Shown here: piece by piece, positions 43,761-43,834 of the stretch | Layout of the letters: each line of letters starts with the position of its first letter | Position numbering within the stretch: the first letter of the stretch is position 1 | Sequence record: PQ362703.1 | Source of the DNA: Escherichia phage vB_EcoP_PW8 | Reading direction: 5' to 3' (one strand) | DNA length: 64,000 bases | The notes under the pieces: generated by a model | Seen by the model: the letters and a program-made list of their open reading frames with translations, nothing else | What the model was told of the DNA's origin: nothing | Databases searched by the model: none | Made by a program: the position numbers and the translations under genes

Positions 43761-43834
43761 GCCCACTTAGCTTAGACGGGGAAAGCAACCGACTAATAAT
43801 CGGAAGGTCACTGGTTCAAATCCAGTAGTGGGTA
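43761..43834 (+). tRNA. tRNA, anticodon tentatively AAU
   Basis: Canonical cloverleaf by manual fold: acceptor GCCCACT/AGTGGGT, D arm GCTT...AAGC, anticodon stem CCGA/TCGG with loop CTAATAA, T arm ACTGG-TTCAAAT-CCAGT. Confidence 0.6.

Follow-up and report, generated by a model that had tools for sequence, protein, structure and literature searches.

The genome of Escherichia phage vB_EcoP_PW8 (sequence record PQ362703.1), of which a stretch of 64,000 nt was analysed here (the window), contains at positions 43761-43834 of the plus strand a tRNA gene with the anticodon AAU, i.e., with an adenosine at wobble position 34. We found this gene, tRNA-Ile(AAU), to be conserved in sister phages with an unchanged anticodon loop and with compensatory exchanges in its stems, and sequence comparison traces it to a tRNA-Ile2(CAU) lineage of phages and prophages, in which the wobble C34 was replaced by A. 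The gene probably specifies a functional accessory tRNA that is charged with isoleucine, keeps its A34 unmodified, and reads AUU, supplementing the host tRNA-Ile(GAU).

The original prediction, made by manual folding, had proposed a phage tRNA with A34 and the anticodon AAU. ARAGORN and Infernal/Rfam independently agreed with it. ARAGORN reported tRNA-Ile(aat) with a span of 43761-43835, and the Rfam tRNA model RF00005 aligned to 43761-43834 over its full length (model positions 1-71 of 71) with 64.8 bits (E 5e-13; gathering score 29). Both programs placed the loop CTAATAA in the identical register, with the anticodon AAT at 43795-43797. Automated folding thus gave the same register as the manual fold. 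The parts of the gene are as follows:

43761-43834, plus strand: tRNA-Ile(AAU) gene, positions 1-73 (ARAGORN, Rfam, covariation, identity to the copies in phages Bp4 and ECBP1).
43788-43804, plus strand: anticodon arm ACCGA-CTAATAA-TCGGA, the same as the arm of CAU-type tRNA-Ile2 except for C34 to A.
43793-43799, plus strand: anticodon loop CTAATAA (C32 T33 A34 A35 T36 A37 A38), read from the sequence, with A34 at 43795.

The acceptor stem comprises 7 bp (GCCCACT/AGTGGGT, including G1.U72) and is followed by U8 and A9. The D stem of 4 bp (GCTT/AAGC) encloses the D loop AGACGGGGA, which contains G18 and G19, and the anticodon stem (ACCGA/TCGGA) consists of four Watson-Crick pairs and an A27.A43 mismatch. 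A variable loop of 5 nt (AGGTC) leads to a canonical T arm (stem ACTGG/CCAGT, loop TTCAAAT) and to the discriminator A73 at 43834. CCA is not encoded; CTC comes next. All features expected for an elongator tRNA were found, namely stems of 7/4/5/5 bp, a 7-nt loop, U33, a purine at 37, U8, A14, G18 G19, and T54-T55-C56, and A27.A43 and G1.U72 were the sole irregularities. The cloverleaf, predicted to be otherwise canonical, is nearly so; the exceptions are these two positions and the missing CCA.

Thermodynamic folding was set aside as evidence for the gene. The cloverleaf (-20.9 kcal/mol) was isoenergetic with the minimum free energy structure (-21.0 kcal/mol), in which the acceptor and T arms were correct and the D and anticodon arms wrong, and the z value was only -1.7. 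Since folding alone was uninformative, we relied on covariation. On the opposite strand, 43761-43835 resembled the Rfam family Plastid-ycf2 5'UTR (32.9 bits; threshold 65.7). The reverse complement of the consensus of this model is the sequence of a tRNA with the anticodon CAU, which we take to be plastid trnI-CAU. The match is therefore an antisense echo of the similarity to tRNA-Ile2 and no separate element.

The window has 42.8% G+C and carries on the minus strand an open reading frame (ORF) of 3458 aa, the size of a virion RNA polymerase (vRNAP). The DNA around the tRNA is about 90% identical to that of the Gamaleyavirus Escherichia phages ZQ2, St11Ph5, Bp4, ECBP1, and others, and by its sequence the window is that of an N4-like coliphage and belongs to Gamaleyavirus (Schitoviridae). 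tRNA-Ile(AAU) was found at ≥90% identity in 44 phage records. The copy of Bp4 (annotated as tRNA-Xle) is 100% identical across 43761-43835 and the copy of ECBP1 (annotated as tRNA-Ile) across the 74-nt gene; other sister copies are 93-97% identical and have the AAT anticodon in the same slot. None of the complete E. coli genomes searched carries the gene at ≥90% identity. For the phages UE-S5a/UE-M3 it is listed as 'tRNA-Ile-AAT' without comment (PMC11927229). The gene is hence already on record in sister phages, and neither the records nor the papers comment on A34, the CAU ancestry, or the function; our literature search found no paper that discusses A34 tRNAs in phages or the wobble adenosine of the sister-phage gene. 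The labels in the records call for caution, as 'tRNA-Xle', 'tRNA-Ile', 'tRNA-Thr', and 'tRNA-Cys' are used inconsistently within Gamaleyavirus.

We compared 10 distinct Gamaleyavirus versions of the gene from phage, IMG/VR, and metagenome collections. The CTAATAA loop with the AAT anticodon was invariant in all 10. The differences between the copies were located in loops or kept the pairing: pair 2-71 occurred as C-G, U.G, or U-A, pair 1-72 as G.U or G-C, and pair 5-68 as A-U or G.U. In the anticodon stem, two independent full compensatory changes were seen, G30-C40 to A-U in ZQ2 and C29-G41 to U-A in one contig (L067). An alignment of 16 distinct sequences (9 AAU versions and 7 CAU-type relatives) showed pairing in 96.7% of the cells of the cloverleaf and a double-sided change in 11 of 21 pairs; none of 500 shuffled controls reached this value, and all slid controls were lower. 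The mean pairwise identity was about 95% for the tRNA, compared to 71% just downstream and 84% both for the flank upstream and for the adjacent coding region (the tRNA slice was offset by one base, which did not affect the picture). The invariant loop, the pair-preserving or compensatory stem changes, and the identity above that of the flanks are clear sequence evidence that tRNA-Ile(AAU) is maintained by selection.

Bacterial tRNA-Ile2, encoded in E. coli by ileX and ileY, has the anticodon CAU, in which TilS converts C34 to lysidine, and reads the rare codon AUA. All of the best matches to tRNA-Ile(AAU) outside Gamaleyavirus were tRNA-Ile2(CAU) genes, from the Enterobacter N4-like phage EcP1, from Aeromonas phage AS-yj, from Stx prophages (ileZ), and from E. 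coli (ileX). Their identity was 74-80% over the full length and 81-86% across the part aligned by BLAST, while the E. coli tRNA-Ile(GAU) was just 58% identical. The likeness is strongest in the anticodon stem-loop, position 34 apart, and in the T arm, which are near-identical (anticodon arms: AS-yj ACCGA-CTCATAA-TCGGT, EcP1 GCCGA-CTCATAA-TCGGT, ileX GGCGA-CTCATAA-TCGCT), and C4-G69, A73, A37, and A38 are shared. The AAU lineage differs by the exchange of C34 for A, by a compensatory change of pair 13-22 from C-G to U-A, by A-U or G.U instead of C-G at pair 5-68, by its D loop, and by the lack of an encoded CCA, which all CAU relatives have. When metagenomes were searched for the anticodon arm and T arm of the phage tRNA and any anticodon was allowed, the matches had either AAT, on Gamaleya-like contigs, or CAT, and two of those with CAT adjoin tRNA-Arg(tct), the usual rare-codon partner of tRNA-Ile2(CAU). 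In the phage collection no Gamaleyavirus body with a CAT anticodon was found as a 'missing link'; the full-length matches to a CAT-version query were ≤98.7% identical. Taken together, these sequence comparisons establish that tRNA-Ile(AAU) descends from a phage or prophage tRNA-Ile2(CAU) lineage by the change of the wobble C34 to A.

The E. coli TilS protein uses the pairs 4:69 and 5:68 of its substrate (PMC11947777). Both pairs are C-G in the CAU relatives, whereas tRNA-Ile(AAU) keeps C-G at 4:69 and has A-U at 5:68. It is thus kin to the tRNA-Ile2 family and lacks both C34 and the 4:69/5:68 set of a TilS substrate, and the loss of C-G at 5:68 would fit a release from recognition by TilS. Since C34 is replaced by A, lysidine cannot form and AUA should go unread.

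MetRS needs C34, and this position is A in the phage tRNA. The identity elements of isoleucyl-tRNA synthetase (IleRS) comprise A73, C4-G69, U12-A23, C29-G41, A35, U36, A37 (t6A), and A38 (Giegé and Eriani, PMC9976931), and all of these bases and base pairs occur in the sequence of tRNA-Ile(AAU). Because the IleRS set is complete except at position 34 and at minor positions of the D loop, and because of the requirement of MetRS, it is reasonable to infer that the host IleRS charges the tRNA with isoleucine.

Bacteria typically have only one tRNA with A34, that for arginine (Schmitt et al. 2024, PMC11066159), and tRNAs with unmodified A34 are described as extremely rare; their decoding was studied in few, mostly artificial, cases (PMC11066159). 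Working in E. coli, Schmitt, Tittle and Fisk built 15 of the 16 A34 anticodons into one orthogonal tRNA with the loop CU-NNN-AA (PMC11066159). A signal of inosine was seen only for ACG, AUG, and AAG and not for AAU, and the AAU anticodon decoded AUU to 4.5%, AUC to 0.43%, and AUG to 0.27%, with AUA below detection (PMC11066159), a preference of about 10-fold for AUU over AUC. The loop of tRNA-Ile(AAU), CU-AAU-AA, has the context tested there.

These features suggest the following scheme. tRNA-Ile(AAU) would be transcribed together with the adjoining tRNA-like genes up to a terminator at about 44071-44102. Host enzymes would process the transcript, the host CCA-adding enzyme would supply the CCA that is not encoded, and the host IleRS would attach isoleucine. 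With A34 unmodified, the tRNA would read AUU by Watson-Crick pairing and AUC weakly and would leave AUA unread. The host tRNA-Ile(GAU) reads AUU solely via G:U wobble, and the phage tRNA would supplement it for AUU, the commonest isoleucine codon of the phage. Unlike its CAU ancestor, it would need no wobble-modifying enzyme (TilS) for this.

A different fate of A34 would be its deamination to inosine, either by off-target action of the host TadA on an abundant phage transcript or by an unrecognised factor. With IAU as its anticodon the tRNA would decode all of AUU, AUC, and AUA, as happens in eukaryotes, and would so replace the TilS-dependent AUA decoder from which it descends. The tRNA body is indeed of the AUA-reading tRNA-Ile2 type, and the tRNA shares C32, U33, A37, and A38 of the loop with the TadA substrate of E. 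coli, tRNA-Arg(ACG). The U33-A34-C35-G36 loop of this substrate (tRNA-Arg2) is not matched, however, as tRNA-Ile(AAU) has A35 and U36 and therefore departs from ACG at both positions, and in the same loop context TadA modified only 3 of the 15 A34 anticodons in the study cited above, with neither inosine nor AUA decoding for AAU. A tRNA deaminase encoded by the phage itself was also considered and rejected: a relaxed scan for the CDA/TadA zinc motif [HC]xE...[PS]CxxC found no match when all six frames were searched across the 64-kb window, which covers all but roughly 8 kb of a 72-kb genome, and the sole annotated deaminase of phage N4 is a dCTP deaminase. Codon usage could be taken to favor inosine, since AUA makes up 13% of the isoleucine codons of the window compared to 6% in 45 E. 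coli genes and about 7% in N4. The excess is found mainly on the plus strand, where AUA accounts for 15% of the isoleucine codons of the early/middle ORFs between 352 and 45098, compared to about 7-10% in N4 (odds ratio over N4 for plus-strand genes 1.6-1.8, p 0.004-0.016). It was not significant for ORFs of ≥250 aa (p 0.2-0.3) and may reflect small, spurious, or poorly adapted ORFs; as support for a tRNA that reads AUA it is weak at best. We consider inosine at A34 unlikely. If true, this would be the first tRNA-Ile(IAU) in a bacterial system and would let a virus decode the rare AUA codon with neither lysidine nor TilS.

For unmodified A34 and AUU as the codon read, we followed the proposal of the original prediction to compare the codon usage of phage late genes and the host. 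Of the isoleucine codons, ATT, ATC, and ATA make up 58/29/13% across the window; for the virion/vRNAP block the shares are 68/24/8%. In E. coli the values were 54/41/6% for 45 ordinary genes and 27/73/0.3% for 30 genes for ribosomal proteins and elongation factors. The fraction of U-ending codons, AUU versus AUC, was 0.67 in the window and 0.74 in the late genes, compared to 0.57 and 0.27 in the two E. coli samples. Codon usage is thus compatible with AUU decoding.

Several observations weigh against a role of tRNA-Ile(AAU) as an isoleucine-charged AUU reader. Phage N4, which lacks any tRNA-Ile, has 66-71% ATT, compared to 54-65% in the window, depending on the strand. Because N4 is equally AUU-rich or more so without such a tRNA, codon usage does not discriminate between the readings, and co-adaptation was rejected as specific evidence. 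IleRS also uses position 34, which is G or lysidine in E. coli, and as minor determinants G16, U20, and U21 of the D loop (PMC9976931). In tRNA-Ile(AAU) position 34 is A, and the D loop gives A16 and G20, so that the minor determinants G16, U20, and U21 are absent. The absence of inosine from the AAU anticodon was observed on another tRNA body, that of the M. jannaschii tRNA-Tyr (PMC11066159). Phage St11Ph5 (MG208881.1) shows a clean deletion of exactly tRNA-Ile(AAU) with conserved flanks (aligned to 43757-43838). This phage is a viable isolate that does without the gene, and tRNA-Ile(AAU) is accordingly accessory and dispensable in this relative. Lastly, the gene is set among degenerate tRNA-like sequences, has the A27.A43 mismatch, and lacks CCA.

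Some of these observations would also be expected if tRNA-Ile(AAU) were a decaying or neutral relic, i.e., a former tRNA-Ile2(CAU) that was disabled by the change of C34 to A and has no function in translation. The richness of the slot in degenerate tRNA-like sequences, the CCA that is missing here and encoded by all CAU relatives, the A27.A43 mismatch together with G1.U72, the clean loss in St11Ph5, and the codon bias that N4 shows without a tRNA-Ile all agree with this. A relic would not be expected, however, to keep an invariant loop and intact stems in all copies compared, with substitutions that preserve pairing and two full compensatory double changes, or to stay about 95% identical where the flanks and the neighbouring coding region show 71-84%. 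Its Rfam score of 64.8 bits is also far above the 40.7 and 29.2 bits of the degenerate neighbours. We therefore regard a relic as improbable.

Phage tRNAs can counter host defences that target tRNAs. A non-decoding role as a nuclease-resistant substitute or decoy against a host defence acting on tRNA-Ile or Ile-tRNA, with A34 aiding escape, would agree with the variable presence of this accessory gene in the genus and with the recurrence of tRNA-Ile(aat) in unrelated viral lineages, but it is very unlikely. No gene for defence or counter-defence is linked to the tRNA at this locus, the full set of features used in translation (IleRS elements, T loop, G18 G19 of the D loop) is kept, as fits ordinary decoding, and an E. 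coli anticodon nuclease directed at tRNA-Ile is not known to us.

To see how common such tRNAs are, we scanned sequence collections with a pattern that combined an A34-bearing anticodon arm of this type with a T loop. The counts are limited by this pattern and are no census. In IMG/VR, 48 matches with AAT were found, of which 33 were tRNA-Ile(aat) according to ARAGORN; these represent no fewer than about 12 sequence lineages that are unrelated to each other. With CAT the arm is commoner (at least 120 matches). Four of the AAT loci belong to contigs of giant viruses (GVMAG; 21-24% G+C), in which AAU tRNA-Ile is expected. The remaining contigs carry phage-like tRNA sets, some of them with Ile(aat) beside Ile(tat) or Ile(gat), and by analogy these pairs would support an AUU-reading role. 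In one of the lineages, seen at seven loci, the tRNA-Ile(aat) measures 68 nt, has a short D arm, and adjoins Arg(tct), Ile(tat), and suppressor-like (tta/tca) tRNAs. In the representative genomes of 185,579 species of bacteria and archaea, one genome per species, the pattern matched 71 times, and just 21 of these matches were tRNA-Ile(aat) by ARAGORN, several of them in phage-like tRNA arrays. A34 tRNA-Ile is thus a minority form, which turns up repeatedly in viruses and seldom in the genomes of cells. Together with the published data (PMC11066159), this bears out the original prediction that A34 is rare in bacteria outside tRNA-Arg. Phages may repeatedly evolve tRNAs with unmodified A34 as modification-independent decoders of U-ending codons.

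tRNA-Ile(AAU) sits in a non-coding slot of about 2 kb (42113-44148) between genes similar to gp47 and gp48 of N4. The corresponding slot of N4 carries tRNA-Asn, Ser, Thr, and Pro. The features of the slot and its borders are:

41660-42112, plus strand: N4 gp47-like gene, left border of the slot (BLASTP to N4 gp47: 32% identity over the N-terminal 79 aa, E 9e-8).
42821-42892, plus strand: atypical tRNA-like element, 'tRNA-Ala(cgc)', first in the tRNA slot (ARAGORN; Rfam tRNA-Sec 29.2 bits, sub-threshold).
43680-43755, plus strand: upstream tRNA-like gene, 'tRNA-Undet/OTHER' (Rfam tRNA 40.7 bits at 43680-43752; CCA encoded at 43753-43755).
44071-44102, plus strand: terminator-like hairpin with T run (terminator scan: 9-bp stem with 5 GC pairs, tail TTTTTATTT).
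44149-44541, plus strand: N4 gp48-like gene, right border of the slot (BLASTP to N4 gp48: 47% identity, E 7e-44).

The hairpin at 44071-44102 is unchanged across the window, ZQ2, and St11Ph5, and judged from its sequence it probably ends the transcript that carries the tRNA. A search for a promoter of the tRNA cluster gave sigma-70-like matches at chance level only (5 found versus 4.0 expected). Another hairpin, at 42788-42809, precedes the element at 42821-42892. The hairpin motif at 42782-42808 occurs once in the window, and no informative repeats were found. The slot as a whole is composed, like a mosaic, of modules that resemble T arms or tRNAs, e.g., GGGGTTCGATTCCCTCC and GGTGGTTTGATTCCATCC near 43230-43330, which are shuffled, inserted, or deleted among phages that are otherwise about 90% identical. 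About 290 bp of the window (43466-43756) are missing from ECBP1.

The upstream tRNA-like gene was placed 5 nt before tRNA-Ile(AAU) by the original prediction, which is correct when the encoded CCA is counted; without it the spacer is 8 nt. Acceptor stem, D arm, and T arm of this gene are good, while the Rfam alignment leaves 18 nt of the anticodon region unaligned. The normal arm of 5 bp and a 7-nt loop cannot form in this region, CCCACTAGTAAACCAGCT, where pairing is limited to CUAG/CUAG enclosing a loop of 8 nt. ARAGORN labels the orthologues as 'tRNA-???'. The gene occurs in 20 phage records at ≥90% identity and is 76-81% identical to sequences of Klebsiella and Enterobacter phages, two records of which annotate tRNA-Leu or tRNA-Gln.

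The element at 42821-42892 has an acceptor stem of 8 bp, U3-A70 instead of G3.U70, U37, and nearly no variable loop. Its fold is very stable (z = -3.45) and it is conserved in relatives; in St11Ph5 and ShWW44 it is annotated as tRNA-Ala.

Relatives such as ECBP1 (locus L001, 1004-1107 and 1202-1280) and UE-S5a (locus L003, 906-1008) carry a segment that is missing from the window at about 43010-43050. It gave sub-threshold Rfam matches to tmRNA_permuted (33 bits) and ends in the ORF-like GCAAACGAUGAUGUUGUUCUGAUGGCAGCCUAA, with the translation ANDDVVLMAA-stop, which resembles the SsrA tag of E. coli, ANDENYALAA. The downstream 'tRNA-Cys(ACA)/tRNA-Pseudo' of the relatives gave no Rfam tRNA match but just a match to a tmRNA 3'-end. 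From these sequence similarities, the annotation as tRNA-Cys or tRNA-Thr may be wrong in some Gamaleyaviruses and hide a tmRNA-like RNA. We also considered that tRNA-Ile(AAU) and the tRNA-Cys-ACA reported for relatives form a pair of A34 tRNAs. This was rejected, as the window does not have the segment and Rfam finds tmRNA-like fragments and no tRNA there.

tRNA-Ile(AAU) is of an ordinary kind, a phage accessory tRNA, and is mildly notable for a wobble adenosine in a bacterial system. It represents a natural, evolutionarily maintained A34 tRNA in lytic coliphages that are easily handled, and St11Ph5 offers a natural deletion control, or knock-out. The phages are thus a convenient model for a wobble adenosine in a split codon box and for the question why viruses, unlike their hosts, tolerate or favor A34. 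With the predicted decoding, the gene would also illustrate a one-step route from a TilS-dependent AUA decoder to a modification-independent AUU decoder.

Among known systems, the genes of the sister Gamaleyavirus phages Bp4, ECBP1, and UE-S5a/UE-M3 are the same gene, in the same slot and with the same anticodon. The eukaryotic cytoplasmic tRNA-Ile(AAU) shares the genomic anticodon and is converted to IAU by ADAT2/3, whereas the phage tRNA has a body of bacterial/phage type and an E. coli host, and neither host nor phage has ADAT2/3. E. coli tRNA-Arg2 (ACG converted to ICG), the only A34 tRNA of the host, shares A34, C32, U33, A37, and A38 and differs by C35 G36 in place of A35 U36. A natural tRNA-Thr(AGU) with unmodified A34 was reportedly found in Mycoplasma capricolum by Andachi and colleagues in 1987; it likewise has an unmodified A34, yet it serves a four-codon box in a reduced genome, while the phage gene belongs to the split AUN box. 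The engineered A34 tRNAs also place a wobble adenosine in a bacterial system but are artificial, with the body of the M. jannaschii tRNA-Tyr and charged with tyrosine (PMC11066159).

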